Origin: Psammoneis japonica
Taxonomy: Eukaryota
Length of the DNA stretch: 64,000 bases
Direction of reading: 5' to 3'
NCBI GenBank assembly: GCA_008632985.1
Contig: QPGO01000074.1
Coordinates: forward strand, 62,001-126,000
This document shows, one piece after another, positions 10,491-62,717 of the stretch. A program made the position numbers and the translations under genes. The notes below the pieces were generated by a model. That model did no database searches. It saw nothing but the letters and a program-made list of their open reading frames with translations, and had not been told where the DNA came from. The number at the start of each line of letters is the position of its first letter. Position 1 is the first letter of the stretch.

Positions 10491-10519
10491 GCAGAAAGAC
10501 AATTTTGGAGCAATCACCT

Positions 10520-14088: not shown

Positions 14089-14283
14089 AGTCGTCGTGTC
14101 GTGACGTGTCGTGTCGTGTCGTGTCGTGTCGTGTCTTGTCGTGTCGTGTCGTGTCGTGTCTTGTCGTGTCGTGTCGTGTCGTGTCTTGTCGTGTCGTGTC
14201 GTGTCGTGTCTTGTCTTGTCTTGTCGTGTCGTGTCGTGTCGTGTCGTGTCTTGTCGTGTCGTGTCGTGTCGTGTCTTGTCGTA
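14089..14283 (+). repeat. (GTCGT/GTCTT)n pentanucleotide microsatellite (CGACA on minus strand)
   Basis: Read directly from the sequence. Confidence 0.95.
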
Positions 14284-16330: not shown

Positions 16331-16414
16331 CATGCTTTCTTTCTGTGTTTTCTTGGAGTTGCAGGAGTGGAGCTGGGTGCTTGACATCTTGCACCACACA
16401 CCAGCATCCACATT

Positions 16415-30020: not shown

Positions 30021-30029
30021 CCCCCCCTC

Positions 30030-31750: not shown

Positions 31751-31802
31751 AAGGAGGCGGTGTGATCTAAGCTGAGGGAGTCTCAGCTGTGAAGAATCGT
31801 CA

Positions 31803-36000: not shown

Positions 36001-36307
36001 CATCATGAACTTCTCCACTCCCCACATGGACAACGCAGAATGTTCTCAGAAGGCGAAGGAAGGCCAGGAGATTTCCAAGCATTCTCTTGCTGCAGATTCA
36101 AAGAACACAATGACCAAGTTGATCAAGAAATCCACCCTTTGCAACAAAGGTCATGCCTGTGACTCCTTGGACGTTGTGTCTGCTCTTGCCAACTTCAGGC
36201 TTGTCTTCAATGCTCTCATTGAGAACTTTGATGAGACAGCTCTCTGGCAACAGCTTCTCTGCCACCACCGCGTGACTTTTGGCAAGAGTCGAAAGCAACG
36301 GGTTGTG

Positions 36308-36744
36308 TGCAACACACAGCTGCCAATGAGAGTCAGTGCATCACGGCGACGTGTTGCAGCCTTTAAATGTCACAAAGGGCGTGACAAAAACAACCTTTTG
36401 TCTGCATGCATGCTGCATTGTGAATTCATGGCGGAGTGGTTCATCGCAACCATCAGGCAGGAGGCCAGGGGTTCGAAACCCTGAGTGGGAGTTGTCTGCA
36501 GCAACGTTGATCACTGTCGAACGCGCAAAACTCTGTGCAGTTCTGTGTGTTCCTTCGCACTGTTCCGCCAAAACCGTGCAGTGTCAGCACACGTTGGTAA
36601 AGAGCCGCATGGGCGCGTGATGCATGGGGAGGAGTGCAACACACAGCTGCCAATGAGAGTCAATGCATCACGGCGACGTGTTGCAGCCTTTAAATGTCAC
36701 AAAGGGCGTGACAAAAACAACCTTTTGTCTGCATGCATGCTGCA
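36308..36744 (+). mobile_element. 437-bp miniature LTR element (TRIM-like): 110-bp LTRs 36308-36417 and 36635-36744, 4-bp TSD TGTG
   Basis: TG...CA LTRs differ at one base. Polypurine tract ggggaggag precedes the 3' LTR. Absent from the paralogous gag copy at ~38755. Confidence 0.85.
36426..36490 (+). promoter_or_regulatory. tRNA-derived Pol III promoter-like segment (A box TGGCGGAGTGG, B box GGTTCGAAACC)
   Basis: D-arm-like gcgg-agtggttca-tcgc and T-arm-like caggg-gttcgaaa-ccctg; no proper anticodon arm. Confidence 0.55.
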
Positions 36745-39700
36745 TGTGAGCAATGGCAACACCCATGAAATTGCTGCAAATGTGCTCAATGACACTCAAA
36801 ACATCATCCATGCCTTCTTCCAACTTTGAGGTGTTCTGGGTTGCAGCGAAGCCATTCCCAACTTGCAGGATGTCAGTGTCTGGGCTTTGGACATCTCTGA
36901 GTGCTTGGCTGGCCAGTCGACTCAGGATCTGGAGACCAACATCAGTCGTGTCCCCCCCCCTGGAACTTTTGGCAGCAAGTGCTTGCTCTGTCAGCTTGCT
37001 GCAGAGTCAGGTGCCACTTTGGCGACTGGCAAGCACCCAGCTGAATCACCCCCTGCTGCAGCATCTCCATCCAAGAAGCTTTGTTGCAAACAGACATTGA
37101 CTTGTGCAAGAAGGATGGGTCTCCCAGCTGTCTCTGGAAATCCTTGCCAGCCTCCCATCACCCTGGTTGTGGCCAAGAAAAGCGCAGATTCAAGCACTGA
37201 AGAGCACCTGTGTCCTTGCTTCTTGACACGCGGTGCTCACTGCAGCCATCAGAAATGCGGCAAGCCCCACACTGCAAACTTGTGTGCAACCTCCCCGATG
37301 GGAAGTGTGGCGAGTTGATCAATTTCGTCAATGATGCTGGCAACCTCTTTTGCTGAGAGAAAGGGCCCCAGCGGCGCATCTGCTCAGTCTCATCTTTTGA
37401 CAAACTGGCAAACCTTCTGTTTTAAAATGTCACCTCACACTGAAATTCCTTTGGTTTTTTTTCAACCTTGCTCCTCCAGCTTGAATTGTTGACTTGGCTG
37501 TTGCAAATTCTTCAGGCAAAACCGTGGGTGCAAAATGGGACCCAGGATGCAGCCCCTCTGCTTCCTGCTGGAAACAAGCAGATGCCATCTGACTTGCTTG
37601 GTTCAGCACCTCAAGATGTCCCAGATGCAGCACCTGTCTCTTTGGATGAAATCAAAGAGCTTCGCCCTGTTCTGCCCCCCATGAATTGACCAAGTGCCTT
37701 GCCATGCCATTGCAGCTCTTCCCCTGGCTTTTCCTCTCCCTCCAGGTTGTTCCTTTCCTCTGGAGCTCATTCCTGGAAACAATTGTCCTGGTTTGGCCGC
37801 TGAGTTTCCGACGCCAAGTGTGTGGCAGAAGGCCATTGGCTGCATCCAACAGCACAACGTGGGTTGTTCTCTCAACCAAGGAAGACCTCGTTTTGATCAA
37901 GCTGCCAATGGTCCACAAGTTGTTGATGATTTCATGAACCTCAACATCCACAACTGTGGTGACAACAATTTTCAGGTGGCTGCACTCTTTTTGGACGGTT
38001 GTGCAAGTGTCCAAACTGCAATCAGGACATTTTCCAACTTGACCTGCCTGGCAGCAGACTCTTGGGGCCATGGTTCAAGGTCCTGCTCCAAACAATGCAA
38101 ACAGAGTTCAGGCAGGTGCAGCTGCAGTTGCTCAAGGCCCTGTTGCTGTCAACGTCAATGCCCTGAGACCAAGAAGGACAAGGATCTCAGGAAGAGGGCT
38201 GCTGACATTCAGCCTTGGTGCTCTTTGTCCTTTTGCCAAAAGGCAGCAGGTTCTGACACCATTGCTGTTGGTGAGCTCAAGCCAGTTTCATTGATGCTCT
38301 CCAGGAATTGAGTGAGACCAAAAAGGCTTGTTGTTGCAGCTCTCAACAGCCAGAAATCAATGAATGTCTTTGATCAAGTTGTTGCCTTTTGCCCAGCTTG
38401 TGCAAGACTTTCCCCAAATGCTTTGGTCATGATGTGTCTTGCTGACTTCAACATCATGAACTTCCTCATTCCCTGTGTGGACAATGCGGAATGTTCCCAG
38501 AAGGTTGAGGAAGGCCAGGAGATTTCCAAGCATTCTCTTGCTGTGGATTCCAAGAACAGGGCTGCTGAGTCAATGAAGAAATCTGCCCTCTACAACAAAG
38601 GTCATGACCGTGACTCCTCAGATGTTGTGTCTGCTCTTGCTGACTTCAGGCTCATCTTTGATGCTCTCATTGAGAACTTTGATGCAACAGCTCTTCAGCA
38701 ACAGCTTCTCCACCATTGCCGCATGGCCTTTGGCGAGAGTGGCAAGCAATGGATCACGAGCAACGGCAACACTCATGAAATTGCTGCAAACATGCTCAAC
38801 AACATTCAAAACATCATCTGCACTTTCTTCCAACTTGGAGGCATCCCAGATTGCCACGAGGCTGTTTGCAACTTGCAGGATGTCAGTGTCTCCAGGCTCT
38901 GGATGTCTCCGAGTGCTTGACCAATCAGTCGATTCATGATCTGGAGACCAACATCAGTGGTGGTCCCCCTGGAACCTTTGACAGCAAGTGCTTGCTCCGT
39001 CAGCTCACTGCAGAGTCAAACACTGCACCCAACACTCTGAGCCTTAAAAAGCTCAATCTTCTCATTTCTTTTCTTTGGGATTTGCTTGGATGCAAATGTG
39101 ACACAAGAGCCCTCACTGTTGGCATGGTGGCTCACAACTTGCACAAGCTTTTGATCATCCTTGGGGATTGGCTTGCATGACAACCGCATCAGTTGGTGGA
39201 CATGTTGTCTCCACCATGCCTGCTGGAATTCTACACATGTTGCTGCCCCTGTGCTCATTGCTGGCTCTTCCTTCTTCAGAACATTTTCAATGCAGACTTG
39301 GTTGCTCATTGTCTTGTCGCACAGTGGATGTTTGAATGACAAGGCAAGAAGGAGCAAACTTTGGACCAACTTCCTTGCAAGCTGCACCACTGTGTGTCTT
39401 CCATTCTCTCTTGGGAAAAAGCACAATTTGTCTGCCATGTGCACTTTGAGACTCCAGCATCAGAGCCTCTGCATTGGGCCATCTGCTGTTTGGTCAAGCA
39501 TCTCAAGTCAACTCCCCAACCAACAGGAGGCACAGATTGGAACTGTCATCCCACGTGACCCGCGAAGGCTTGAATTCTTCCCCAGATTCCAGAGACTGTG
39601 TTGTGATGAATGCTCTTGAATTTGTGGTGTCTGTCCTTGTCTTGGTGGGGATTGTTGCTTTTGTGGAGTCCATTGATGAACCCTTAGATCCAGAGTGCTG

Positions 39701-41654
39701 GTGAGGGCACTGTTCCTCTTGCAATTCCCAAGAACTTGGTTGTCCTGCAAAAACAGACAACTGGACTAGTTCTGGTTGACAAAATCGTCAGACTGCTTGG
39801 TCTCTTTGGGGGGCAGCAGATGCTTTGCATTTGTCTGCACTTTGCACTTGTGCCAGAATTGGCCCCAACTTGCAGGGCAAGCACTGTGAGCTGGCATCAA
39901 CACGCAATTGGCAAATGACATTGCCCATCCATCTACCCTCACCTCCCTCATTCTGTCCATGTTGCTCAGCCTAAAGACTTGGACCTTTTTCTTCCTGAGT
40001 CAAGAACTGCCACAGCCAATTTACTCTTGGTTGTTCTCCAAGTCATGGCCGGCCCCTGTGCAGACCCCACCGCACTTGGGATGGCTCGTGCACAATGCAC
40101 CCACTGTTTCAAATTCACCAAAGATGTGAAATGGAATTTGGATGACCCAGAGATGCTCGTGGAAGATCTTCCAGAGCATTGCTGCCAGCTGCAGCTTGCC
40201 ATGCATGCCTTGCATGTTGCAGCATGGGTTGACTCTGTTTTTTGTAAACAACTCAAGTTGGATTCTGTCCTGTGTTGAGTCAGAGATGTTGCAAAATTCA
40301 CTCATCTGTTTGGTTGCTGTTGTGATCATTGCTGTGACCAACCTTCCAACACTGGAATGGGCAAGATCTTCACAGCCATTGAGCAGGAGCTTGAGCAATG
40401 CAATGCAGCTCCAAATCATTGTGAAAGTTTCAGTGCTGAGATGCTCACCAAGTTGAAAGCTCGTGCTGATGCTCAGCATGCAGTGGATCCGGACAGCCTT
40501 GCTGGCACCAGGTGTGCCTTTTTGTGGTGCCCATCTCCAAGAATGGGTGCAGATGGCCAGTTGCTCCAGCCTGGTGTGTGTGGTGCCTTGACAGCATCTG
40601 CACTGAAGCTGGAGACTGTCAATGCCTCACCAATGCTGACACTTTGCACATCTTGGCTGAGTCCATGTCAAAGATGTGGGCATGGTGCTGGTGCAGACAG
40701 AAGAATGGCCAGCATGGCAAAGAGAAACTCTTCACTCTGAATCTTTGCCATGGAGGTCTTGATTTGGTCAAGCCCATGTGCCGCATCATTGAGTGGTTTG
40801 TCTGCCTTCGCAGTGCATCTGACACAACAACTCTGCTGTCATTGTGTGAGCCCATGGGCAAGGAGATTGAACTCATTGCCGCCAAGGCAATCAAGAAAGA
40901 CATGCATGAAGTGGCCCCAAGGTGTGTAAACTTGATCCGGTCAAGGACAAAAAGGCTGTCAAGTGATGGTCATCCCACTTGCTTCATGTCGAAGCCTGCT
41001 CAGTGCTCCATCAATTGGCTTTGGCACAGAAGCCATCCAGTGCTCTTGCACTGGCATTCAACTGCCTTCACGGCATGTCTTAGAAACTCTGCGTTGTTGG
41101 TGGACCACCAAGGCAGAGCTCTTGACCGCTCGGCGGCCATGCCCCACCTTTTGTAAATTTTTCAAAATTGTTTGTTGAAATTTTGTCTTTCTCATTTGTT
41201 TCTGGTTTGTTGACATGTTCGCATGTTTTGACCAGTTGTCTGGGCCACACTCATGAGCACTGGGATCTCAGCCCACCCGTCACATGTGGACTCCACTTTG
41301 GCATTGTTTTCAATTGAGCACAACAAGGCAGTTGGCATTGGCGCAAATGTGAGGTGACCTCCATGCTCCAAACCCACCCTGATTGGATGGTGTCATCTGT
41401 GTCGTGTGCATTCTTGAAGGTGCAAATGTGCTTTCATGACTCATTTTGAACTGTCCAATGGCTCTTGATGTGTTCCTGGGCCTTGGAACACGTCTTTGTG
41501 ACAATTTTCTTTTTCAGCGATTTGACACCTCACATTTGGAGGTCAATTCCATGGTTTAGATTCCATTTTTCTCTTTTTTTCTGGCTGGCTCTGATGCCTC
41601 CGATGACATGGGCACGCACACCGCACTTCGCACAATGCGTTGGCAGCCATCTGG

Positions 41655-42205
41655 TCTGTTCATGCATTGCTGGGGAACAAAATGGACGCAGCTAGATCTG
41701 CAGATTTGTCCCCCTTTTTCTGGCTGTTGTCTCAGCAGCATCACGTGAACACACATGTTTGCACATGTTCTGTGCATTGGATGTGTTCATGCATTGATTG
41801 TTGAGGCCATTTGGCAGCTCTGCACTGTGACACGTCATCGGCGGCATTGCACAGCCAAGCCAAGGCGGTGGCAGGGAATGTGCGATTTTTGGTGCCAAGA
41901 CAGCAGGCGAAGCACAAGGAGAGGACACCTTGCAGGCAGCTGCACTTTTGGAGGAGTCACCATGTGACAGCAGCACGCAGTTGAAGGTGGATGGACAGAC
42001 AACAGACAATGATGAGAGGCCGCCCCAGTTCCTCTCATTGTTCTTGGCCGGCAATCAGCAAAACAATGGGGTCAGATGCAGTGCCCCCTTGTGGGTCCAT
42101 GACACTGAAAAATTCCCACCCAGCCCATCCCTCTGTTCGTGCAATGCTGGGGAACAAAATGGATGGAACTGGATCTGCAGATTTGTTCCCCTTTTTCCCG
42201 CTGCT
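41655..42205. repeat. Short direct repeat (~41655-41730 and ~42133-42205)
   Basis: tgctggggaacaaaatgga....ct.gatctgcagatttgt.ccccttttt occurs twice. Confidence 0.75.
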
Positions 42206-42656
42206 GTGAAACATCACAGCTGAGCCACTCGGCTTGACCCACCACGCTTCCACTCCATCACAGTGGGGCCTTCAAAGCCTGAGCCTTGCAATCACTAAAT
42301 CACTGGCTGACCAATTGACCCGCTGCTCCACCAAACTACAATCCCAACTCTCCAACCTCAATTCGAAATCCATCCCTTTTCCTGCCTACATGACGACTCA
42401 GTAAGTTCCACCCTTGCTCCGCGTCTGCCCCCCCCCCCCCCCCGCGCCACTGGGTTATTGTGCGATCTGCATGTAAGGTACCGCATGCATCGCCGACTTC
42501 TTTTTGATGGTAACGACATCGGGCTTGAAATTCAACGTTGCCCGATAGATCCATCAGTTCTTCACTGAGGCCTGCCTTTGATCGTTCGTTCGGTTTCGAC
42601 GGAACTTATCAAACTGTGAGAACATATTTTTGAAAGGCTTGAGCTGTTTCGCTGCG

Positions 42657-48700: not shown

Positions 48701-48804
48701 AGTGCAAGGAGTTCATTCAGCAGTGTTTGACTTATGACCAAGCATTTAGGCCAACTATTGGTCAGCTTTGCCAAAGTCCGTACTTGATGAAGAAGAAAAT
48801 CTAA
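45720..48804 (+). CDS. TLK: Tousled-like Ser/Thr kinase (introns 46443-46635, 47755-47850, 48450-48539)
   Basis: Coiled coil with RLG...ESWEDG; LLGKGGFSEV, VAVKIHQL, IIHYDLKPGN, ELTSQGAGTYWYLPPECF, SNKVDVFS. Confidence 0.93.
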
Positions 48805-48853
48805 AATTAGATCTACCTTTCACAGTGTACGTTCCGTCTAACTTGTGTTTGAG

Positions 48854-50069
48854 TCACGCCTCACAAAATCCCACAACTACATCTGTAGCTACCTTGCCAA
48901 CGACATCCATTTTGTAACCTCCTTCCTGGATAAACACGGTTGGGATATCGCGAATCGTTCGGCCAATCGTTTGGCCCACTTTAGAAAAGTCATCACCGAT
49001 GAGCTTGAAGCCGGCTCGTCGAATGCTCACTTCGTCTCCTTCGTGCGTATCGAGACCTAGCGATACCACCAGCGCCTTTGCTCCAAAGTCAACAATTCTG
49101 TTCAAGCCCTGTTGTAATGCCACTTTGTAATCCTCCCATGTGGTGCCTGGAGATAGGGGCAAATGTAACGTAGTACCGACGCCGTCACCCGCTCCAGTTT
49201 GATCCGAGAAGCCACTATGAAACGGATAATCAAAGTCAGGGTCGCAGTGCAGTGAAACCACTAAAACAGTCGGATCCTCGTAAAAGATGGATGCTGTCCC
49301 ATTCCCACAGTGATAGTCTTCAATGTAACACAATGTATGAAAAAAGACTGTTGAGTAAGACTTCCAAATTACTTGTTTCTCAAGCCAGCCTTGTTCGACA
49401 CGTACCGACATCTAGAATTGCCACCTTGGAGCCGCCACCTAGCCGCGATTGAAGGCTCCGGGCGGCATAGGCTGCATGATTGATATAGCAGTATCCCCCA
49501 AAGCTATCATGAGCTGCATGGTGTCCAGGATGAGTTGTCACAGCATAACATGCACGTGATTGAAAGGATTCATGAACGGCTAAATTCACCACGGCCGCAT
49601 CCCACGTTAACTCCTCCTTTAAACGAGCAACAATCGGAGTGCACAAATCGGTGCAAAAATAAGCCACCTTTCCCATAACATTTTTGCTTGGACGTTGATG
49701 AGGACATCGAGGAAGCGGAACATTCAGCGGAACCAGTGGCGGAGGCACTCCCGGTGTGGTCTCTCGCAAGGCACAATCCGGATCTCTTCCGTCTCCAAGA
49801 TCTTCCCATTCTTTCCAGGCGGTCGTCAGAAACGCAAGCAGCCCTTTACTATGCACTGAATCATAATCGCGAATGGCGCCTGCTTGTGAACATGGTGGTG
49901 TCACGAATTTCACATTTGCTTGCGTTTGCCGTTGTCGCAAATGTTGCAAAATGAGTGCGCGACGATGCCGTGGGTGATTGTGAGTGTCGTTTGCATCCGC
50001 GTCCTTGTCGACCGAATCTAGAGGCTCCTCCGACTCAGAGGCACTCCTCGATACAACCACCAACTCCAT
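48854..50069 (-). CDS. Histone deacetylase superfamily / acetylpolyamine amidohydrolase-like protein (intron 49318-49405)
   Basis: PGHHA, GGYCYIN, spliced ILDVDYHCGNGT, VSLGLDT, QEGGY. Confidence 0.88.
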
Positions 50070-52277
50070 GTGCAGTTACGGTACAGTATCGAGGGTTGAT
50101 GTGGAAGCAGTGCTCCTCTGCCGCCGTACGTATTGCGCATCGAAAGGTCGCTGAAAAAGTGAGCACAAACGGACCCGTAGGATTCTACGTCTATGTACCA
50201 CGATATCTGTCCGTGACCCGGGTTGCGTCGCGATGATGATTAGATTATTCGCGATTGATTCGCGATCGATGGTCGATGGCGACGCGATACAGTACAGTGT
50301 ATGGGGAGAGGGGAGAGCGCAGAATGGAGAAAGGAGTTGAGGTACAGTATTGTGAAAATTGGCTCATCTTCGCTGGGAAAGACAGCACGGACACGGCCAA
50401 CTTGTATACCGGAGAGTAGCCAGACAAGTTCGTTCGCCCACTTCGTTAAGCATGTCGGCGAAAAAGGCACCTTGGGTCAAACGGCGTCAGTAGGGCCTAG
50501 TAAAAATTGGCCGGCAGTAGGGAAGCACACCGGTCTTAGCAGTGTTAGGAAGGGTTTCGGTTAAGCACGAAACTGGAGTCGTTTCCCTTTGAGCGTTTGT
50601 CAATGCCATGGGCAAAGGCTTTCATAGATTGTTGCTCTCACTTTTTCAAAAAAAAAAAAAAAAAGCCCGGAGAATAGTCTTGAGTCTAGGCTTTTCCCTG
50701 TTGTCATGACATTTAGTTCTCTTGGATTTGTGAGGGCGGCGTTCGCCATGCCCATGTCATACGATCCGTCCGCACTTCATAGCTCAAAAAGTTTTTGACA
50801 GAGATATCCGGAGCTCAGCCATCCATCCATCACGATCACGATCTTCACGATGTGTGAGTGCCAAAGTTTTGAATTGATTGTGTGTTACTAATGTATTGAG
50901 AACATTTATGGGATCAAGTGGCCGACGAACTGCAAATAGAAAGAGAATCAAAGAGGTACAGCACACTGCACAAAGGCTCCGGACAATACACACGATTGAA
51001 TCCTCTTAATCGTTTCTTCATCGTTCCATTGCCGTTTCGAGTCACTCTTTTTGATGTCGTCATAAGGGTCGTAGTCACACAAATCCACGCTGCAGGTCAA
51101 AAGGAATAATCGATGCTTTGGGAAGGAACCACCTACGGCCCAAACACCCCAAAACGCACGACCGCCCAATCCGGCCGAAAACGTCTTTGTCTCGGAGAAT
51201 CAACTCGCCGCTAGCATGAGAGTGTGAAATGGAGTCGTCTGGAACTGGTTTGAATAAAATCCGACCAATATTGCCTGTGTTGTGATCGATTCATCTTGGG
51301 GTGTAAGCGAGCATTCCGATGTGACGTAGGCAGAAAAGGTCGTCGATCAAGTCTTGACACCTTTGTTGACACCCGTTCTCATCCACTCCCGGCTCAAAAA
51401 TCAAAAAGCAAGATCAAACAACACCCAAAAAAGAGAAATCAAAGAACAAAGTAAGTGACATCGTGCAATCATCATTCTATCATCTCCACATGCACTGGGG
51501 GTGATGCACTGGGGGTGTAGGGGAACGCACGGGAAGGCGCCAGAGAGTTTTTGTTGACTCGGTCGGGCGCCGTCATCTTGCTTCCCATCGAAATCGCGAG
51601 TGTTCGACAACAAACCATCCACACCCCACCTTGTACTGTACTGTCCAATGCTTCAAGGAGGCCATGAACTCCTCACAATTGTCGGCAGTGGCCTTTTCCG
51701 GCCATGGTTGCCGCGGGCAGGTGTGGCGGGGAGCTTCTCAGGTTGAAGGTGGTGTTCGCTTGGGGTTCTCATCGTGACTGAAAATTGACACTCGTGACTC
51801 GTTCGGAGCTTCTCTTTTGAGATTCCGATCGAATGACTCGATCGACTCCCTTATCAAGCACGACATACACGCACGAACCACGACCCACGACCACCGATGT
51901 ATGACCACCACTGAGCACAGAGCACACCGTTGACCGTGACGAGTAAAGAGTGATGAATGAGCGCCGGCAGAAACATGGGTCATCACATGCACTTGGAACC
52001 ACAGCGTTGTGACTGTCATCCAGAGTCCACTCTGAGTATGATTTAACCTGCAGAGCATTGGTTCTTTTGTACGAGCACACATCGGATGCACGAGCGCCAA
52101 CCATACCACACATCACCCCCGCCGTCCTATCGTTCACTCGTTCATCAGCACTATGACAGTGCCGCTTGTCCAAAACAACAACATGCGACAATTCAATGCT
52201 AACACTGACCGTCGTTTCATTGTTTCGATTAATACAAGAGCAATATCACGGAAACTTGATTCGAACCCACCAACGAT

Positions 52278-53830
52278 ATGAAGTTCATCTTCCTTTCCAT
52301 CCTGGCCGGTGCCAGTGGAGTTCTGGCGGCCCATCCCAGCCTTCGTCACGAGGAAGGCTTCTTGCCTCATGCCAGCATGGTCGACAAGGTCGGTCCGCAC
52401 CAAGGACAGAGGAAGTTGAGTACCTGCCAAGAGAGTCACTCCACTCTGTTGATGTACAACCCCGGTGCCGATCCAAAGCCATGCATGAATGAAGTCACGA
52501 AGACAGACTTTGGATGTACGGCCGAAGATGTCAAGATTGCAGCAGTCAAGATCGAGAGACTCTACCGCATTGTGGGTGGCGTGGAGGAAGACATTATGCC
52601 AGACCCGATCACCAAGGAATACGATTGCTCCGCCGGAGAGGACTTGCTCGTCGACCTTGAATTGGACCTGACGTCCACCGCCACCGAGAGATACGACATT
52701 GCCACATGGCTAAGCTACGAAGGCGCCGACTTTGCGTACATTGGAAATGATTGCACTGTCGCCAGCTATAATGTTGAAGCTCTTGAGAACATTGACATTT
52801 TAACCAGGCCGGTGGGAAAATACGACGATAACTGTGGAGATGTTTACGGTGTCTCCTCTCCGTATTCTGCGGATGTCTGCGGCTTGCCGTTGAAATGCTT
52901 AGATGCGAGTGCCACCAGCGGGGGCACCGTTACGGTCGGCGCTTGTAATACGTGGAAGCAGAACGTCAAGGGTAAAGTATGTGATCAGGCTGACCGATCC
53001 ACCTTGCTCCCAGGAGCCCCCTCCAAGTGCAAGTGCGAGTATCTCCACTTCCCCATTAACATTCGGTGTGGACTTTCGGCCACGTGCAACCTGTCACCTG
53101 CAACGCATGAGTGCGTTGCTGTTGATGGTGAACCGCCCACGCACTCTAATGTCGCTGATGTCTTTACTGTTACGTCTGACCCCGACAACACTTGTGATCA
53201 CGAAATGACACTCGCGAGTTCCGACAATGGAGGAGCAGGCTGTGTGGCAGACCCTCACGTGATTACCAGGAGCTACGAGTTAGATGATGGAAATGCCTGG
53301 ACGGACCCGGTCGACCCTTGTGAAGAGGCGTGGACGTACGTGGATACCGCGAACCCATCTCTTGCCGATCCCGTTGCGCACGGTCCCTACCAGTGCCTAA
53401 AGGATGTCCCAACTGCTCAGACATTGGGGGCTACTGATGACTGTGATGAAAGCCCAGATGTTAATTACTTGGGCGAGACTAAGTCTCCCCAAATGAGGAC
53501 TGCACTTTTACTCTCACGCGCACTTGGGAAGCGAAGGATTCTTGTGGCAACACGGATACCAAGACTCTGGACATTCAGGTCGACATGACGGTAGCACCCA
53601 CTTTCACCAACTGTCCTCAACACAAGACTGTCAACATCTGCAAAGACACGTACATTCCCGATGCATCGCCGACCGCCACGGACCGTTGCGGTAACCCTGC
53701 CACTGTCAGTTGCAACGACTGTACTTGGGTGGCTGAAGGCGTGCTTAGCCGCTCGTGGACGGCCACGGATGATTGTGACAACGAGGCGACTTGTACGCAG
53801 CTAGTCACATTCAACATGGCTTGCACCTAA
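52278..53830 (+). CDS. Secreted cysteine-rich protein with HYR-like repeats; one frameshift at ~53490
   Basis: Signal peptide MKFIFLSILAGASGVLA; repeats DTxxPxL...ATDDC...TRTWxAxDxCGN. The reading frame continues in another frame after a C-run at 53487-53490. Confidence 0.7.
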
Positions 53831-54124
53831 GTCCGCCCGGCGGGGCCTTTGAATGTCGCACAAGGTGTTGGCGGTCGGCATTCAACCTAAGTAGTAGTTT
53901 AGGAAGAGGTTCGAGGCGCGACGACAAGGTACATTGGGTCGGACTCGGGCCGCCAGATACATGTTGACGATGGCTCGTGGCGCAACAAGGTGGCGATGAT
54001 GGGGTGCGAGCGAGCCACTACATATGGACGAGGTGTGGATTTGGTTTCATATACATGTGAATGCTTGCGACATACGCGTCAAGTTGTGGACCCGTTGATG
54101 TGGTGTGGTGGGCGGACTGCAACC

Positions 54125-54342
54125 AGTGTGTATCGGAGAGTAGCCGGACAGCTATTCTCGCCCATGCCGTAAATATTTTGCGAAATAAGGCGCCCTGGGC
54201 CCAGGACGAAAGAGAGACTTATACATGAAAAACCCTTGGCTGCAGGAGACCAAAAAACCCGTACTCAGCAGTGAATAAGAATAGGAGGTTTCCGTTGTGT
54301 GCGAAACTGGAGTCGTTTCTCTTAGAGCATTTGTCAATGCCC
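54125..54342 (+). repeat. Diverged duplicate of 50400-50610
   Basis: ggagagtagcc.gaca and gaaactggagtcgttt....gagc.tttgtcaatgcc are shared. Confidence 0.7.
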
Positions 54343-54647
54343 TGTCAGGACGAATGATGTGAGCCTTTAGTCGCTCTTTCCCGCCCATCACGCTAGAGGC
54401 GTCGATCATCACACAATGTACGCCGAATAGAGTGTTAAGGGTACAATACAGGCAACAGTACGTATTGCTTAACAAACGCGTCAAAGGGGCAGCAGTGTGC
54501 CAGGATGGAAGAAAAGTGTCGATGCAAGCTTTTCCATGCAATGCAATCACCACGCCACACAAAACTTGTGCCCTGTTCAACAACATCAACACCGTGACGA
54601 TCGTCAAACCTCACTTTCATCGGGTCGAGTTCAAAGCAGTAGTCGTT

Positions 54648-54815
54648 CTATGCCTTTACGTAAATCACGCTCAAATTGTTGGCAGGCATTTCAACGGTTT
54701 CTTGGAGTGTCAAGCCACAAGCCGATGCTTCTTGGACAACCTGCTCCAGATCCCGCTTGCCCCAACTCGGGTCTCTCATTCGAAGACTCTTGTCAAAGTT
54801 TCTGTCCAAAAATGA
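54648..54815 (-). pseudogene. C-terminal fragment of a DUF938/METTL26-like methyltransferase
   Basis: NFDKSLRMRDPSWGKRDLEQVVQEASACGLTLQETVEMPANNLSV; the N-terminal part is missing. Confidence 0.7.
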
Positions 54816-55012
54816 GACTGTCCGAAAATGAGACGAGGAATGGACTTGTGAGACTGACCCAAATCCAAATTGTTTGCCAAAGACAGTCTCCAGAGAGAGA
54901 AAGAGACCCATGGCAATGGTTCCCATATGCAGCATGACTTACAAATTAGACTCGACAGCCGTCCCGTGAACCTTGTGGCTTGCAGGGTCCATGACAATGC
55001 AAGACACCTCCA

Positions 55013-58000
55013 CCCTAGAATTGCCACCTTGGCGCCACCACCTGGCTGCGATTGAAGGCTCCGGGCTGCATGGGCTGCATGGCCAATGATGTGGCAGTTT
55101 TCCCCAAAGCCGCTGTCATGAGCTGCATGATGTCCAGGATGAGTTGTCACAGCATAACATGCACGTGATTGAAAGGATTCATGGACGGCTAAACTCACCA
55201 TGGCCGCATCCCATGTTGACTCCTCTTTTAAGCAAGCAACAATCAGAGCTGCATGGTTGACACAGCAGTGTCCCCTGAAGCTGTCATGAGCTGCATGATG
55301 TCCCAGATGAGTTGTCACAGCATGACATGCACGTGATTGAAAGGATTCATGGACGGCTGCATTCACCACGGCCGCATCCCACGTTAACTCCTCCTTTGAA
55401 CAAGCAACAATTGGAGTGCACAAATCTGTGCAAAAACAAGCCACCTTTCCCATGACATTTTTGATTGGACACTGATGAGGACATCAAGGAAGTGGAACAT
55501 TCAGCAGAACCAATGGCGGAGGCTGTTGGAAAGTGTGCATCAAAAGCACAAACACAGAAATTGGACAGCATGCACCAGCCCAATGTGCTCCACATGAAGC
55601 ACCAGAGCTGCCAATGAAGCAGTCATCATTCTCTTTTAACTCTTAGAAAGCATTGCAATGACAAGCTTGTCCATTCTGCCCTCAGGATCAGCCTTGGAGG
55701 ACTGAAGCAGCCCTGAGACAGCTGCCAGAAGGGTGAATCTCAGCAGTTGAAAGAGAATGAACCAGCTGAGAGCTGCAAAAGTGAGAAAGAAGAAAAGAGA
55801 GTCATTCTTGCCAAGTGAGAGACATTTTCCTGCTTTTCCAATCCAACTTGAGTGGAAGAGGCAGAGGCAGAGGTGGCAACAGGAGCCATGGAAAAGGACC
55901 CTCTGGAAGAGGAAACAGGGGTGGCAAGCAGAGCCACAAGAGCATTGAAGACTGCGTCTGCTGCATTGGAAATGCCAAGCAAGCATCTGATTTTCAGATT
56001 GCAACTGAGTTCATCATCAACTGCACAAAGAAAACCTGTGAATTTGGAAATGATGTGGCAACTGCACTCAGCACTTACACTCCATGTGACATGAGTTCCA
56101 AGAAGCCAACTTTGCAGGTCAGCTCAACAGGAGATGACAAGATTGATGTGGCACTGAACAAGCAGTGTGAAATTGAACTCAAGACCAAATTTGATGCCCA
56201 CATTAAAAGGACTCAGATGCATGAGAACACCTTGATTAAGGCTTGTGCTCTGCTCTGGGAAAGGTGCTCCAAGGCCATGAAGAACAAGATTCAAGCAAGG
56301 AATGAATTCCAAACCAAGATTGAGAACAACTCCATTGAATTGCTCAAGACCATCAAGGAGCATGCATTGAATCATCAAGAGCACAGATGCGACATGGCCA
56401 TCATCTCAGATTCTATGAGGGCTGTGTTGGAAACCAAGCAAAAGGAAAAGGAGAGTCTGCAAGATTGCACCAAGCAATTCAGGGTTGCAAGAGACGTCAT
56501 GAAGTCTCACATCAGGGGACCAATTGTCCTCACCAAGATGGCAGAGGGCATGTTGGATTGTGATGAGTCCATGCAGACACTGTCAAGAAGTGTCAAGAGA
56601 AGGCATTCAGCCAGCTGATGGGTTTCATGCACTTGGAGATTGCAGATCAACGGAAGCACAGATCAATTGTCACTTCTCACAGGAATGAACACTCAACAGT
56701 TGCTCAAGAACAACCAGCATCCCAAGTCCATTGCAGAAGCCAACATGGTGTTGAGAAACCACACCTTTGATTGTGTCAAACAGCCAACAGGAACAGGAAC
56801 AATCAAAACAACAACTCTGATTCCAAGAAACAAGAAGAAAATCAAGAAATCACCCTGTCTTTTGCTCAGATGGAAGGCAGGTGTGCTGCTGTTGTGGAAA
56901 GGCAGGACACAAGTCCACCAATTGCAGGGAGAGAGGCTCAAGAGCTCAATCAGAATGGTCCATCAACAAGGCCAAGGCCAAAGAAGAAACAAGCACTGTT
57001 CAAGCAGCTGATGATGCCACCAGTGCTGCAACCATTGGGACCAAGTCTACAGTTTCTGGATGGGCTGGCACTCATGTTGATGCATCTCTCCACCAAGGAC
57101 AGTCTGATGACATGAGAGACTGGATTTTGTTGGACAATCAGTCCACAACCACCATCTTCTGCAACAAGAAGCCAGTCGCAGACATTTGTCTGTCTGATGA
57201 AGTCATGAGATTGCACACACACAGAGGAGTGCTGATCACGACTCACAAGGCCACTGTGCCTGGATTTGGTGAGACCTGGTTTAATCCAGATGCAATCACC
57301 AACATTTTTGCTCATTCCAACATGAAGAAGAAGCACAGGATCATGTGTGATTCCTCCCAAGACAATGCATTCACCGTTCATCTGCCCCACAAGAAGGTCA
57401 AGTTCAAGGAGGATGCAAGTGGGCTGCATGTCTACAAGCCCAAAATCCAAGACATCGGAGCTCAGCTCCAATTCACACAGAGCATTGAGGAGAACAAGAA
57501 GTTCTGCACTCCATGCCAATTTGAGCAAGCCAAAGAGCTTGAGAATTGTTGCACGTGTTGGGAAACCCAACCATGAACGATCTGAAGGCCATCATTTGCG
57601 TGAAGTGACAGCATCAAGAAAACAATCCTGTTACAACCAAGGACTTGGATTTGGCTGAGAAGATCTTTGGACCAGACATTGGAAGCCTGAAAGGCAAGGT
57701 CACCAGGTGAAAGCCAGAGCCAGTTGTGGAAGACTGCGTTGAGATCCCAAAGGAGCTCATTGCGGCTCAGCACAAAGTCACTCTTTGCCTGGATGGACTC
57801 AAGGTGAATGGATTGTCATTCCTCACCACAGCGTCATGAACATTTTTTATTGCACTGCACAGCTGCTGAAGGATTTAACCCAAGCAACCCATCAGGAAGC
57901 TCTGGAAGGTGTGCTGCAAGTCTAGAACAAGGCCAATTTAAAGGTCACGCGCATTCATTGCAACAACAAGTTCAGGCCCATTGGAAATGCACTTGAAGAC

Positions 58001-61000
58001 AAGTTCAATCTTAAGATGAACTGCACTCATGCTCAGGAGCATGTCCCAGAAGCCAAGCAGAACAACCGAGTCATTCAAGAACATGCCAGGGCAGTCTGTC
58101 ATCAACTGCCATTCAAGCATCTTCCAAAGCTCATGGTGGAAGTCATGGTCACTGAGGCTGCTGAGAAAGTCATTATTTTCCAGCCAAGCAAGGTGTTTCA
58201 AAGCATTGCAGTCCAAGAATGATTCTCCATCAAAAGAATCTAGACTGTGACAAGAGCTGCAAAATCACATTTGGCACTCATGTGCAAGCTCACAATGACC
58301 CGGATCCCAAGAACACCCAAGAGTCACGGACCTTGGATGGCATTTGTTTGCACCCAACCAACAGCAACCAGATTGGACATGAGTTGCTGCACTTGCACAC
58401 TGGCAAAAAGATCACCCGTTGCCAGGTCACCCCTGTGCCCATCACTGCAGCCTTCATCATTTGGCTGAAATGAACAAAAGATGCCCAACAGTCTCAAGAT
58501 TGAGAACCGCACTGGAATTGTCATGCGCAACAGTGCTTGGATTGCAGGAGTGAATTATGATGAAGATCATTCAAAGATGAAGACTGCAATCTAGAAGAAG
58601 ACACTAAAGCAAGGGACAAGGAAGACAACAAGGAAGGCAACACAGACTGGGGAGACTCCAAAAGAGGAGTCAGCCAACAAGAGCTGCAAGGAACAATCCA
58701 AGATCAAGAGTTGGATGAAGAAGCCAGCTGCATCAGCGAGGAGCAAGATGAAACTCAAGACAAAGCATCCCAACAAGAAGAGCATCTTGGAGACAATGAC
58801 AAAGAAGGTTCCCAATCATTGGAAGGAAGTGGAGTCTCCCAAGAAATTGATGACATGATTGAACACATCAATGAACTGCAGAATCAAGAGCAGGAATTCT
58901 CTCCAGAAGTGCAAGAGCTCACTGCCAAAATGCAAGAGCCAGAATCCAAAGACGAGTCTGGAGACAAACAGAGTGAAACTGAAGAGAGTGTTGAAGAAGA
59001 GCCTCTTGCCAAGTCAAGGACAGGAAGAACTCTCAAACCTCCAGTGAGATTTGATGATTGCCGGTGTCATTTACAGACTCAGGCTCACTTGCAAGTCAAA
59101 GAGTGCAGCTTGGAAATGGCCAGGATTGTGGCCATGACAATGTGCCAATGGAATGAAAAGATCAGTGCAATCACCGCTGTTGAGGAAGCACATGAATTCA
59201 TTCAAACTTGCAGCTTGGCATGAGGACTCCAGAAGGTTGGAGAAGAAGGCCACAAGTCGGCCACATCAGAGCTGCAGCAGATCCATGATGGAGCAGTTTT
59301 CAAGCCCATTCACATCAAGGACATATGACTCCTCTGGAGAGGAAGAGGGCCATGGAGAGCCTCATGTTTCTCACAGAGAAAAGAGATGTGGACAAATCAA
59401 GTCCAGATTGTGTGCAAACGGAAGCACGCAATGAGAGCGCATGGACCAAGACAAAACTGCCAGTCCACAGCATCCACTGAGTCCATTCTCATCACAGGAG
59501 TGATTGATGCCAAGCAAGGCCAAGACGTCATGACAGCAGACATTCCCAATGCATTTGTGCAGATGGACATTGAGGTCAAGGAAGAGAAGATCATCACGAA
59601 GATTTGTGGAAGGATGGTGGACATTTTGCTGGAATTAGATCCTGAAACTCGTCAGGACCATGTTGTGTGCAAAGGCAAGCACAAGGTCCTCTGCGTTGAA
59701 ATGTTGAAGGCACTCTGTGGAGTGTTGGTGTCTTCCACATTCTTTGTTGCAAGAAGTTCTGTCAAGACATCAAAGGAATTGGATTGAGATAATCCGCATG
59801 ATCCATGTGTGGCCACCGCACTGTGAATGGCAAAAAGCACACTGTGACATTGCATGTGAACGATTTGAAGTTGAGCCACATTGACAGCAAAGTCAACAAT
59901 GAGTTTAAGATTTGGCTTGACAAAACTTGTGCAGACAAGATTGGAAAGGTCAAAGTGATGTGTGGAAAGAGGCATGATTGCTTGGCCATGATTCTAGATT
60001 ACAACATTCCAGGAATGCTGCAAGTGGACATGGTGCTTTACATTTAAGGCGTGATCAGGGACTTTCCGGAAGAATTGTCTGTGACATGGATTGCCCATGG
60101 AACAAGAAGCTCAACAAGGTGGACAAGAAGAGCCAGAAGTTGGACCTCAAAGGTGCTCAAACATTTTGCACTTTTGTGATGAAGGGCATGTTTCTTTGCA
60201 AGAGAGCCAGACAGGACATCCAGCCTGGCATTTCTTTTCTCACCACTGGAGTCAAAGAACCAAATGAATTGGATTGGATGAAGCTGGTGAGGGCCATGAA
60301 TTTCCTCAAGAAAACCCAGCATGAGATTGCAGCCACATCTGCTGGAGACAAAGTCATCATCAAGTGGCATGTTGATGCCTCCTTTGCAGTTCACCCAGAC
60401 TGCAAAAGCCACACTGGAGCAACGATGACTCTTGGAAAAGGTGTCATTGCATCTGTCAGCATGAAGCAGAAGATCAACACCAGGAGTTCCACCAAAGCAG
60501 AAATCATTGCAGGAGACAATGTTGTGTCAAAGGTCCTTTGGACCAAGCTGTTTGTTGAAGCCCAAGGTTTTCCAGTCAAGCACAACATCATGCATCGTGA
60601 CAACCAGAGTTGCATGAAATTAGAAGAAAACGGAAAAGCCAGTTCAGGCAAACGCACAAGACACTTCAACATCAAGTGTTTTTACATCACCAATCTCATC
60701 AAGCATGGAGAACTTGAGATTAAGTTCTGCCCAACAGACAAGATGATTGGAGATCACATGACCAAGCCTGTGGTTGGCAAGAAGCTCATTGTTGATCGTC
60801 AAACTGTCATGAACATTCAAGTGCCTGAGATGGGCAAACACACTTGGAAGTGCAAAAAATCTTGTCATTGGTCAGCAGGAGCATGTTGGAAAGTGTGTGT
60901 CAAAAGCACAAACACAGAAATTAGACAGAGTGAAGAAGACACATGTGCCAGCGCTGATGTGCTCTACGTGAAGCAAGAGAACTGCCAATGGAACAGCTGC

Positions 61001-61780
61001 TGTGTTCTCTTTTGACTCTTGGAAAGCATTGAAATGACAAGCTTGTCCATTTTGCCCTCAGGATCAGCCTTTGAGGACTGAAGCAGCCCTGAGACAGCTG
61101 TCAGAAGGGTGAATCTCAACAGAGGCACTCCAGGTGCGGTCTCTTGCAAGGCACAATCCGGATCTCTTCCGTCTCCAAGATCTTCCCATTCTTTCCAGGC
61201 GGTCGTCAGAAACGCAAGCAGCCCTTTGCCATGCACCAACTGACAATCGCCAATGGTGCCTGCTTGTGAACATGTTGGTGTCATGAATTTCACTTTTGAT
61301 TGCGTTTGCCATTGCCGCAAATGTTGCAAAATGAGTGCGCGACCACGCCTTGGGGGTGATTGTGACAGTCGTTTGCATCTGAGATTGTGAGAGTCGTTTG
61401 CACCCGAGTGTCGACGGAATCAAGAGGCTCCTCCACCTCAGAGGCACTCCTCGACACAACCACCAACTCCACATGTCCCGGTAGCTACAGCACCGAGGGT
61501 CGATGTTAAGAGCAGTGCTCCTCTGCTGCCGCATTGCGGCTCTGCGGTAAAATGCCATTGAAAAAGTGAGCACAAAAGGTGGGATTCTACAGTGCAGTAC
61601 ACACTGTAGGCAAGTACCACACGGTATCTGTCCGTGACCCGGGTTGCATCGCGAAAATAGCGATCGACGTACCCAGTACTATGGTACTTGAGGGGGTGAA
61701 CGGTGAACGCAGAAAGCAGAAAGGAGTTGAGTTATTGTGAAGCTCATCTTCGCTGGGAAAGACGACACGGACGCGGCCAA
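55013..61780 (-). pseudogene. Duplicate of the HDAC gene 5' part and upstream region (49411-50400), split by the copia insertion, with an internal ~170-bp tandem duplication
   Basis: 55013-55523 and 61122-61780 align to 49411-49746 and 49742-50400. Confidence 0.9.
55524..61121 (+). mobile_element. Full-length degenerate Ty1/copia (CoDi-type) LTR retrotransposon; LTRs 55524-55745 and 60884-61121; 5-bp TSD GAGGC
   Basis: TG...CA LTRs; GAGGC at 55519-55523 and 61122-61126, single in the intact gene at 49742. Gag knuckle CCCCGKAGHKSTNC, protease WILLDNQST, integrase EHVPEA, RT ADIPNAF/HVNDL, RNase H VDASF/DNQS/TKP. Many stops and frameshifts. Confidence 0.95.
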
Positions 61781-62285
61781 TGATTAGTATCAGTTTTGTT
61801 CCGGTGATCGTATTGGTGGTGTCTTTAGCACAGGGCTCTCATGGCTTTGCGAATCTTCAACCCCTCAGTCAACGTTCCATGCGCAGCCTTTCGACTGGCC
61901 GCCTCATCCGATTTCGTTCGCCCTGCATCTTGTTGTCCAAGACTCCACAACAACAGGAAGAAAAAGATTCACCGTTTGAGTCACTTGATGTAGTACTGGA
62001 CCGTGCTCGAAAGCGGAATCAAACCCCATTGATCCTTGGAAAGTTTCAGTCATCTGTCTTGAATCGACGAGTGTTGTTTCCATTTCTGTCTGTTTCTGAC
62101 ATCTTGTTCATCTTGGTCGCTGTCGCACTTGACGCGAAAGGATTTGCAATCGGTTTGTTTGTGGAAAGGCAACGCTGGCTCCACTTCAAAAACTAGTAAT
62201 GGAACAACGGAATGGCGCGTCACTTTTGAGATACGCCGACTTTTATCCCGTCCTTCTAGCAATCGCCTTGGACCAGATTATTTGA
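61780..62285 (+). CDS. Small predicted plastid-targeted membrane protein; frameshift at ~62163
   Basis: Signal peptide ending SHG-F followed by an Arg/Ser-rich transit peptide and hydrophobic helices. Adding one G restores FVGKATLAPLQKL...YPVLLAIALDQII*. Confidence 0.55.
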
Positions 62286-62717
62286 TGAGAGGAAGCATAC
62301 TTTTGTTCTTTAGACGTTGAAAGCCAAAGTAATGAGCTATAGATACCCGTAGCTTTGCACCGCCACGTGGGCAGAGTGGCGATTGCGTGCCAAACTGGGC
62401 ATTTCGATCGAACTGAGTGAGCGCACTGTTGAAGTCGTCAAGTCTTCCAATGAGCATTTCGCGATTGCTTCCACTTTGGAAGCTAAAGATACAACTTCAA
62501 TAGGTTTGGTGTCAGCGCATAGTTTGCAGTTACCAAGTCCAAAACTTACCCTTGGAGAAGGTGGCCGTGATCCTCTCACTACCTTACGGTATGTTGAGAT
62601 GTCAGTTTGTCCGTGACATTTCTTGAGTCGTGCATGGCACCATATGCGTGTCACGACTGAACAACGGCGGAAGAAAGATCACAGAAACGGAGGATTTCAC
62701 AATATTACAAAAGCATC

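Follow-up and report, generated by a model that had tools for sequence, protein, structure and literature searches.

The closest described systems are the RIP of ascomycete fungi, the spreading of methylation, and APOBEC and ADAR. RIP changes CpA to TpA (C:G to T:A) and leaves the DNA AT-rich; it is triggered by duplication, mutates both copies of a duplicate, and depends on cytosine methyltransferases of the RID/DIM-2 type and on a premeiotic stage. In plants and mammals, methylation spreads over a few hundred bp. APOBEC, which acts on cDNA, and ADAR, which acts on RNA, operate before integration, leave the LTRs of an element alike and cannot touch the host flanks; RNA adenosine deaminases prefer a 5' U or T neighbor. 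RIP also leaks into adjacent single-copy genes (PMC3105345). A description of TpA-directed mutation of diatom transposons was not found in full-text searches of the open literature or in term look-ups in PMC2806351, 10.1101/2025.10.24.684338, PMC12718438 and PMC9258296.

The window, a 64,000-nucleotide stretch of diatom DNA, contains an intact gene of the HDAC family (Table 1). Of its 3872 homologues, the top match is 52% identical and carries PF00850. Two sets of run contigs were compared with the window: X1, the DNA contigs of a public run, which may not be independent of the assembly, and X2, whose contigs skip introns, as those of RNA do. The HDAC intron is backed by an X2 contig that skips from 49317 to 49406, with CT..AC ends. 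A partial duplicate of the gene, comprising exon 1 and the promoter, has been cut in two by a Ty1/copia element, and its left part carries an internal tandem duplication of 168 bp. The two flanks are 74-90% identical to the intact copy, and a CGA to TGA stop is present in the second tandem copy. By X1 depth the flanks are single-copy (54-58, versus 200-1000 over the copia element).

Table 1. Features of the locus, in window coordinates.
Feature	Positions	Strand	Basis or remark
Intact HDAC-family gene	48854..50069	-	ORFs and homologues with PF00850
HDAC exon structure	exon 1, 50069 to ~49406; 88-bp intron, 49318-49405; exon 2 to 48854	-	
Reference copy of duplicated segment	49412..50400	.	most of exon 1 and ~330 bp upstream (promoter)
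Single-copy gene region	52200..54324 (CDS 52280-53830, +)	.	unmutated in the window; X1 contigs with dense TA to TG/CA tract
TA-poor DNA left of duplicate	54471..55013	.	no paralogue in the window; probable outer part of mutated zone
Partial HDAC duplicate, cut in two	~55014-55523 and 61122-61780		
Left flank, tandem copy 1	55014..55247	.	aligned to reference 49411-49640; 280-510 bp from LTR
Left flank, tandem copy 2	55248..55523	.	aligned to reference 49471-49746; 0-280 bp from LTR
Target duplication GAGGC (5 bp)	55519-55523 left of copia; 61122-61126 right		
Degenerate Ty1/copia LTR retrotransposon	55524..61121	+	numerous stops and frameshifts
5' LTR of copia	55524..55745	+	TGTTGG...CAGCA
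3' LTR of copia	60884..61121	+	TGTTGG...CAACA
Right flank, mutated part	61122..61480	.	aligned to reference 49742 to ~50076
Right flank, unmutated distal part	61481..61780	.	aligned to reference 50077-50400, promoter-derived

The inserted element was assigned to Ty1/copia by its TG..CA LTRs, the 5-bp target duplication and an RVT_2 domain (PF07727) recognized through homologues of its C-terminal ORF; Pfam searches with the window's own degraded ORFs gave no direct match. The C-terminal ORF (302 aa) has 233 longer homologues, at no more than 66% identity over 80% of the query, with Fragilaria and Nitzschia among the named sources, and PF07727 is found in 120 of the 120 homologues listed. Its C-terminal motifs are presumably those of RNase H. 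No further copy of the element was found within the window. Observed/expected ratios over the element are 0.06-0.12 for TA and 0.06-0.25 for CG. Comparison with 30 homologues yielded only seven conserved tyrosine columns, of which one is kept, two read His and one Cys, a direction that is as expected in numbers too small to use.

The polarity of the changes in the flanks was set by 40 HDAC homologues. At TA sites where a change alters the protein, most or all of these homologues keep the residue of the intact copy (e.g., Y195, Y193, Y175 and L154 in 40/40, Y69 in 39/40) and none has the residue of the duplicate; judged from these proteins, the intact copy holds the ancestral state. The fate of each TA dinucleotide was scored against it, pooling the three flank pieces and excluding gapped sites, for 41 TA dinucleotides in all. 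When conversion was set against distance from the LTR, the check that the earlier note had proposed, TA had become TG or CA at 12/14 sites within 0-280 bp, 9/17 at 280-470 bp and 1/10 at 470-700 bp (Fisher test, below 470 bp versus beyond, p = 0.0025). Counted per base, transitions in TA context versus at other A/T were 12/26 versus 8/243 at 0-280 bp, 9/34 versus 6/142 at 280-470 bp, and 1/21 versus 6/80 past 470 bp. The reverse change, from TG or CA in the reference to TA in the duplicate, is absent within 380 bp of the LTR, and the five reverse calls all lie farther out than this, in the poorly aligned distal part. Conversion of CG to TG or CA (20 of 70 sites; 11/34, 6/18 and 3/18 at 0-280, 280-470 and >470 bp) is rarer than that of TA and has no clear gradient.

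The first tandem copy has 11 TA sites, of which six became TG, four were kept and one suffered a transversion; nine of the 11 in the second copy became TG or CA, with one kept, in a TTAA context, and one transversion. In the right flank conversions lie at 105, 108, 122 and 333 bp from the LTR, followed by three more at 369, 410 and 458 bp, just beyond 61480. Farther than 460 bp, none of nine aligned TA sites is converted (seven kept, two transversions), and other substitutions are at least as frequent there. The four letter changes from which the earlier note had started are all borne out by the alignment: tttactat to tttgccat (reference 49845, duplicate 61225), gataca to gacaca (50050, 61453), aaataag to aaacaag (49657, 55434) and cataac to catgac (49674, 55451). 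Permutation runs tests on four tracts gave no sign of the strand coordination expected of a processive one-strand enzyme (p = 0.34-0.74). An apparent mirror-image strand bias, with TG:CA at 12:3 on the left and 2:5 on the right (Fisher p = 0.052), was discarded, being absent in the X1 tract described below (17 A>G versus 13 T>C at 30 listed TA sites), as was a TAY/RTA trinucleotide rule for the strand converted, which fits just 5/9 asymmetric sites of that tract.

Two internal comparisons date these changes relative to the insertion. The 5' and 3' LTRs mismatch at 26 positions, among them three clean sites where CA faces TG, four sites with TA versus TG or CA, and one with CA versus CG; about 10 of 223 LTR positions differ in a manner that involves neither TA nor CG. 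The two tandem copies likewise resolve the ancestral TA differently, as had been claimed: reference sites 49484 and 49486 read TG in copy 1 and CA in copy 2, and four more TA sites are converted in one copy only. Since the LTR pair and the tandem flank pair each differ at shared sites, the change took place on DNA after insertion. The changes are directional, TpA-specific and made in situ. They are fixed A:T>G:C and C:G>T:A mutations, for which "editing", the term used in the earlier note, is a misnomer.

The right edge of the mutated zone is abrupt. There is no TA in the 358 bp of 61123-61480, where 12.5 would be expected, and there are 15 in 61481-61780 (10.5 expected), matching the reported return of TA-rich text near 61480. 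The zone edge is a switch, not a gradual fade. The reach on the right is ~360-460 bp, and on the left conversions extend to at least 480 bp; homology there stops at 55013, so the duplicate by itself gives no reading of a fade on that side. The adjoining 54471-55013 has 7 TA in 543 bp versus 19.0 expected, a count equally poor in 4/476 unedited windows of 543 bp, and dense TA returns to the left of 54470. By composition, the TA-poor zone on this side probably extends to ~54471, ~1 kb from the LTR. The idea that mutation spreads from the copia element into the host-gene copy therefore stands insofar as directional post-insertion changes reach the flanks and then stop; its fixed extent of a few hundred bp does not. 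The edges of other TE blocks in the window are sharp within ~30-300 bp and, the TE termini being unmapped, are neutral on leakage. X2 RNA contigs stop at 54271 and restart at 61720, which puts these ends ~200 bp outside the edge at 54471 and ~240 bp outside that at 61481, and the blank between them is no sign of silence. Because the zone edges lie this close to the RNA contig ends of two neighboring genes, the domain may be bounded by active genes, without distance decay.

The same signature extends over the TE blocks of the window, ~35 kb in all (34.7 kb), where TA observed/expected is 0.00-0.19 per kb. Relative to unedited DNA, the density of TA is 0.10, that of CG 0.27 and that of CA plus TG 1.49, with base composition unchanged (A/C/G/T of 0.257/0.244/0.244/0.255 in edited and 0.258/0.244/0.247/0.251 in unedited DNA). 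Among the TA survivors in these blocks RTAY is nearly extinct and TTAA is kept; the tetranucleotide preference is weak among the polarized events of the X1 tract and of a second duplicate pair. In this pair the copy at 970-1390, within a TA-free block, has 13/17 TA sites converted versus 7283-7700, with no reverse changes and 6/25 CG converted. Both this copy and the block at 1-3000 have lost TA and kept most of their CpG. The ORF at 1449-3044 has no significant similarity to that at 7752-9878 (E = 0.21).

The intact HDAC paralogue, 5.6 kb away, is at background TA. Since neither this paralogue nor the duplicate's distal 300 bp has been touched, targeting is by region, not sequence identity. 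A TIR-bounded island of ~1.2 kb (13370-14572) is unmutated between two TA-free blocks, and therefore the process is not continuously saturating the whole domain; it may act in episodes, or the island may be of recent origin. Of 80 environmental relatives of the copia element, not one has a TA observed/expected below 0.39, and several show CpG loss without TA loss (e.g., L056, with CG at 0.03 and TA at 0.88). TA loss is restricted to this diatom lineage and does not characterize the element family.

X1 contigs carry a further tract over the single-copy gene region to the left of the duplicate. In one contig, of 3456 nt and at single-copy depth (50), 23/40 TA sites are changed in 52200-53432 versus 0/69 in 49986-52199, with a sharp start at 52200; all 25 differences of this contig from the window lie in 52201-53398, 23 of them at TpA. 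At least seven more changes are listed up to 54324, the tract extending up to 3.3 kb from the LTR. Among the run contigs listed, no joint skips 55524-61121, a result neutral on the existence of an empty-site allele. The RNA contig over this gene is the unconverted version and the X1 DNA contigs are the converted one. The tract may be an allele, a gene-conversion product or something else. In the mutated flanks X1 and the window differ at 4 letters of 674 (54472-55145) and at 1 of 717 (61404-62120), and in copia pieces of 340-416 nt at 2-3 letters each.

On balance we favor, with some reserve, the reading that a hypermutation which acts on DNA, region by region, and which this diatom lineage applies to transposon-containing intervals has leaked into the flanks; as a case of leakage it is built on one insertion with polarizable flanks and 41 TA dinucleotides. 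Inside such an interval TpA would become TpG or CpA, which, the dinucleotide being palindromic, is an A:T>G:C transition at one or the other of its base pairs, and CpG would become TpG or CpA more slowly and independently. Resident DNA would be targeted after insertion, repeated or not, and all DNA within the interval would be covered, here including the dead copy of HDAC exon 1 on either side of the copia element. The targeting unit may be a chromatin or modification domain whose edges are set by active genes, and the geometry of this one insertion suggests nucleation at the TE. Candidate chemistries would be oxidation of thymine at TpA by a dioxygenase of the TET/JBP type, with subsequent mispairing with G, or enzymatic deamination of adenine on DNA; the CpG part could be ordinary deamination of 5mC. 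A bolder form of this reading, which we put forward tentatively and hold to be somewhat less likely than not, is that a currently active, enzyme-driven A:T to G:C system operates at TpA in silenced DNA as a genome defense, with a chemistry that runs counter to that of RIP and is not known from any organism, and with tracts polymorphic within one culture. Because the single-copy gene is converted in X1 DNA and unconverted in the RNA contig, this system would be able to spread from a transposon over a neighboring gene and inactivate one allele.

The mutated flanks are themselves duplicated DNA, and the second example at 970-1390 is likewise a duplicate, so the HDAC fragment might have been mutated as a repeat, through the 1-kb duplicate and its 168-bp tandem, by a RIP-like homology trigger to which the adjoining copia element is incidental; the overrun of fungal RIP into adjacent single-copy genes (PMC3105345) would fit such an account. 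In both pairs, however, only the copy in the TE block is converted, with no reverse changes near the LTRs or anywhere in the second pair, the distal 300 bp of the HDAC duplicate is unconverted, and the gene under the X1 tract is at single-copy depth, without a second copy in the window. We regard this trigger as unlikely. Even less credit is due to the view that a pseudogene simply decayed neutrally in a genome biased throughout towards TG and CA, without any regional process. Both the duplicate and the copia element are old, as is seen in the LTR positions that differ outside the TA and CG types and in flank transversions of ~2-5%, but the non-functional distal duplicate keeps its TA despite at least as many other substitutions (transitions at 1/21 TA bases versus 6/80 other A/T), and intergenic DNA is at background TA, for example at the 69 TA sites of 49986-52199.

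The read-out itself might be at fault, either through assembly or base-calling errors at modified bases or through a modification of silent regions that polymerases read as G or C, in which case some of the apparent mutations would be epigenetic marks. Between the window and the X1 contigs, the TA sites of 52200-54324 differ in one direction only, a pattern that might in principle arise from a hemi-modified or platform-dependent read-out. Against this, the X1 contigs, with the caveat on independence given above, match the window across the mutated flanks and the copia pieces, the element also has indels, frameshifts and LTR indels, and a one-strand mark would not yield a fixed letter on both strands; an artefact of this kind appears very improbable. 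Editing before integration, by RNA-level A-to-I change or mutagenic reverse transcription of a read-through transcript that included the flanks, might fit the likeness of A>G with a 5' U or T to the neighbor preference of RNA adenosine deaminases. It is hardly compatible with LTRs that differ from each other at TA and CG sites, with flanks at single-copy depth that are colinear with the genomic paralogue including its promoter, with the intact 5-bp target duplication, or with the intermixing of TG and CA that marks both strands as affected, and we give it almost no weight.

If regional hypermutation is the true explanation, it would be the first case in which repeat-associated hypermutation proceeds by A:T>G:C at TpA, as well as the first system of this kind from a non-fungal host, and would imply an unrecognized DNA-modifying activity on adenine or thymine at TpA, which would interest epigenetics and might be a natural editor of A:T to G:C. 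The core of the case lies in the flank data, as they attribute the TA-free state of the transposons to regional mutation of resident DNA and not to a property of the element or of its replication. The process would be able to damage neighboring genes. In this genome the dating of transposons by LTR divergence would be misled, as would the annotation of repeats (these copies escape Pfam) and the calling of ORFs, the last because TAA and TAG vanish and long ORFs arise in all six frames.

Set beside the known systems, the locus shares with RIP its dense, dinucleotide-specific transitions in resident transposon DNA, the destruction of coding capacity, and an overrun into adjacent DNA, here as far as ~460 bp into the right flank and 480 bp or more into the left one, with the X1 tract over a single-copy gene. 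It differs from RIP in that the direction is reversed, from TpA to CpA or TpG (A:T>G:C), with TA at 0.10, CA/TG at 1.49 and composition unchanged; in that only the copy in the TE block is mutated, the intact HDAC copy and 7283-7700 being spared; and in its host, which is a diatom. The CG to TG or CA changes within TE blocks (where CG is down to 0.27 of its density in unedited DNA) and in the flanks (20/70) resemble the CpG decay that follows methylation, and the reach of a few hundred bp fits the figure for methylation spreading in plants and mammals. Such decay cannot yield TA loss, however, which is here the stronger and more complete signal, and the two losses are separable, both in the block at 1-3000 with its copy at 970-1390 and in the environmental relative L056. 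APOBEC and ADAR likewise put transitions into retrotransposon copies in clusters and according to context, and A>G is what ADAR produces, but here the LTRs differ at target sites and the host flanks are changed.

Conversion of TA dinucleotides to TG or CA in a partial duplicate of an HDAC-family gene is tied to distance from the retrotransposon that splits the duplicate (see table). The window is nuclear diatom DNA, and its genes and the inserted element find their best named relatives in Cylindrotheca, Thalassiosira, Fragilaria and Nitzschia. The duplicate sits 5.6 kb from the intact copy of the segment, and the HDAC intron is confirmed by a spliced RNA contig of run X2, a run that behaves as RNA in that its contigs skip introns. 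By its sequence the element is a Ty1/copia retrotransposon; homologues of its C-terminal ORF reach 66% identity across 80% of the query, and PF07727 is present in all 120 that were listed. Pfam recognized nothing in the window's own degraded copia ORFs. A short dispersed repeat (72-84% identity) has one copy at the intact gene, bordering the duplicated HDAC segment where it ends (50403-50610), and another upstream of the duplicate (54127-54344); it may be a marker of how the HDAC duplication arose.

Features of the HDAC locus, the inserted element and the blocks nearly lacking TA
Feature	Position	Strand	Remarks
HDAC-family gene	exon 1 50069 to ~49406; exon 2 to 48854	-	88-bp intron; from ORFs
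Duplicated HDAC segment, intact copy	49412-50400		most of exon 1 and ~330 bp upstream
LTR retrotransposon	55524-61121		LTRs 55524-55745 and 60884-61121; TG..CA ends
Target duplication GAGGC (5 bp)	55519-55523 and 61122-61126		one GAGGC only at that point of the intact gene
Left flank, internal 168-bp tandem duplication	copy 1 55014-55247; copy 2 55248-55523
Blocks nearly without TA (five)	1-7000; ~10500-13400; ~14500-17750; ~26000-42250; copia and flanks

The three flank pieces of the duplicate were aligned to the intact copy and each ancestral TA dinucleotide was scored, gapped sites being excluded. Conversion had affected 12 of 14 sites at 0-280 bp from the LTR, 9/17 at 280-470 bp and 1/10 at 470-700 bp (p = 0.0025 by Fisher's test, below 470 bp versus beyond). 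Per base, transitions at 0-280 bp numbered 12/26 in TA context versus 8/243 at other A/T positions, and beyond 470 bp 1/21 versus 6/80; between flanks and intact copy no reverse-direction change was seen up to 380 bp from either LTR. Change of CpG to TpG/CpA was less complete than that of TA and lacked a gradient (11/34, 6/18 and 3/18 by rising distance). The polarity of these changes is shown and not assumed, because at the protein-changing TA-site differences most or all of 40 HDAC homologues match the residue of the intact copy (Tyr195, Tyr193, Tyr175 and Leu154 in 40/40, Tyr69 in 39/40), and the residue of the duplicate occurs in none of the 40. Every word pair cited in the earlier note was found in the sequence, and its observation that mutation extends from the copia into the host-gene copy is confirmed as a whole.

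Both LTRs were the same sequence at insertion and now differ at 26 aligned positions. Three clean sites pair CA in one LTR with TG in the other, as expected when a single ancestral TA or CG has been resolved separately in each; four sites have TA against TG or CA, and one has CA opposite CG. Independent resolution of ancestral sites, as claimed earlier, is also borne out by the tandem flank copies, with TG in copy 1 and CA in copy 2 at reference positions 49484 and 49486 and four further sites changed in one copy only. It follows that resident DNA was the target, once both the tandem duplication and the insertion had taken place, and pre-integration editing of RNA or cDNA is excluded by these same divergences. 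Neither strand coordination of the changes nor a mirror-image strand bias across the copia was significant. Loss of TA as a property of the copia family is ruled out by 80 environmental loci encoding relatives of its polyprotein, in which TA observed/expected is 0.39-0.95 and never lower, against 0.06-0.12 in the window's copia; several of these relatives combine strong CpG loss with normal TA. A trigger by homology, as in fungal RIP, is argued against by a second duplicate pair in which, as in the HDAC pair, only the copy within a TE block is mutated. In this pair, 970-1390 lies inside a TA-free block and 7283-7700, in unedited DNA, is untouched; 13 of 17 TA sites are converted, one is kept and three are otherwise changed, 6/25 CG sites are converted, and there are no reverse changes.

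On the right side of the element, 61123-61480 contains no TA (12.5 expected) and the next 300 bp contain 15 (10.5 expected). Converted and kept TA sites are intermixed at 360-460 bp from the LTR and no TA is converted beyond, placing the right extent of the zone at about 360-460 bp. The left fade is not readable from the duplicate because homology to the intact gene stops at 55013. The 543 bp past the duplicate hold 7 TA versus 19 expected, a scarcity matched in just 4 of 476 same-sized windows of unedited DNA, and TA is dense again leftward of 54470. Judged from this TA density, the left extent is probably about 1 kb. The reach of the zone in the flanks is variable and not a fixed few hundred bp, and its boundary is closer to a switch than to the fade described earlier. 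The other block edges in the window, where TE termini are unmapped, are sharp. X2 RNA contigs cover the neighboring genes up to 54271 and again from 61720, and the proximity of the zone edges to these contig ends (~200 and 240 bp) hints that active genes bound the mutated zone.

Contigs of one public sample (X1, a run with DNA contigs, and X2) were placed on 48800-62400. X1 agrees with the window in the mutated flanks (4 differing letters of 674 at 54472-55145 and 1 of 717 at 61404-62120) and in pieces of the copia; with a depth of about 50-58 in the flanks against 200-1000 in the copia, the flanks are single-copy and the copia family multi-copy. At 49675 and 49677 in the intact HDAC gene, both X1 and X2 contigs have G where the window has A, seemingly an ordinary allelic variant of the expressed gene. 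Unexpectedly, X1 differed from the window at 178 places overall, mostly A>G (65) and T>C (40). One contig of 3456 nt (49986-53432, depth 50) carries 25 differences, all in 52201-53398, of which 23 are at TpA (13 A>G and 10 T>C), one is a CpG C>T and one another A>G; changed TA sites number 0/69 in 49986-52199 versus 23/40 in 52200-53432, and at least seven further sites are changed up to 54324. A spliced X2 contig (52555-54271) has the window's unconverted letters without a difference, so a single-copy gene (CDS 52280-53830) is present in this one sample in two versions, the second with a dense TA>TG/CA tract that starts sharply and extends in the direction of the copia. Most simply, this would be a second allele on which the zone extends for 3.3 kb or more; the 57% conversion would fit a nearly saturated allele if contig building takes bubble branches at random.

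Loss of TA is not peculiar to the copia insertion. TA observed/expected per kb is 0.00-0.19 in the five blocks versus 0.31-0.70 in 33 wholly unedited per-kb windows, and over 34.7 kb of blocks the density relative to unedited DNA is 0.10 for TA, 0.27 for CG and 1.49 for CA and TG, the base composition being that of unedited DNA. Survival of TA is strongly neighbor-dependent: ATAC/GTAT occurs 0 times in the blocks and 145 in unedited DNA, ATAT 1 and 62, GTAC 2 and 90, and TTAA 31 and 30, the blocks being taken for these counts as 1-7000, 10500-13300, 14600-17700, 26000-42200 and 55524-61122. This RTAY-over-TTAA bias is strong among survivors and weak among polarized events. Loss of TA is separable from loss of CpG, because block 1-3000 has almost no TA (0-5 per 250 bp) yet retains most of its CpG (5-17 per 250 bp). 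An open frame of 532 codons in the same block (1449-3044) has a P-loop-like motif and lacks any Pfam match. Through the disappearance of TAA and TAG, the dead transposons of all the blocks, for example at 55500-61200, show open frames of 80-345 codons on both strands and in several reading frames; Pfam found none of the expected domains in the open frames of TA-free blocks, and gene callers and repeat annotators will go wrong there. Between two blocks lies a unit of ~1.2 kb (13370-14572) that resembles a non-autonomous DNA transposon of recent insertion. Inverted repeats of ~137 nt form its ends, its subterminal repeats are palindromic, and 10/15-bp tandem repeats make up a CG-rich array at 14039-14331. 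This island is TA- and CG-rich and unmutated, suggesting that the process is episodic or slower than insertion.

The evidence, from few sites at one insertion and one further pair, fits regional hypermutation of resident DNA inside transposon-containing intervals, within which TpA>TpG/CpA and CpG>TpG/CpA would accumulate and enclosed unique DNA would also be mutated. The TE-nucleated chromatin domain proposed in the earlier note is partly supported: a regional, TE-associated process acting in situ is what is observed; chromatin and nucleation are what we infer as the basis of the zone. Candidates for the chemistry are oxidation of thymine at TpA, after which it would mispair with G, and deamination of adenine on DNA. 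Loss of CpG is a general feature of methylated transposons; to our knowledge the TpA part of the process has no counterpart. Searches of openly available full texts turned up nothing on mutation directed at TpA in diatom transposons, and the underlying phenomenon looks new and merits dedicated study. Among known systems the closest is fungal RIP, including its leakage into neighboring single-copy genes (PMC3105345). Two defining features of RIP are lacking, in that mutation here runs the other way and a single member of each duplicate pair is hit.
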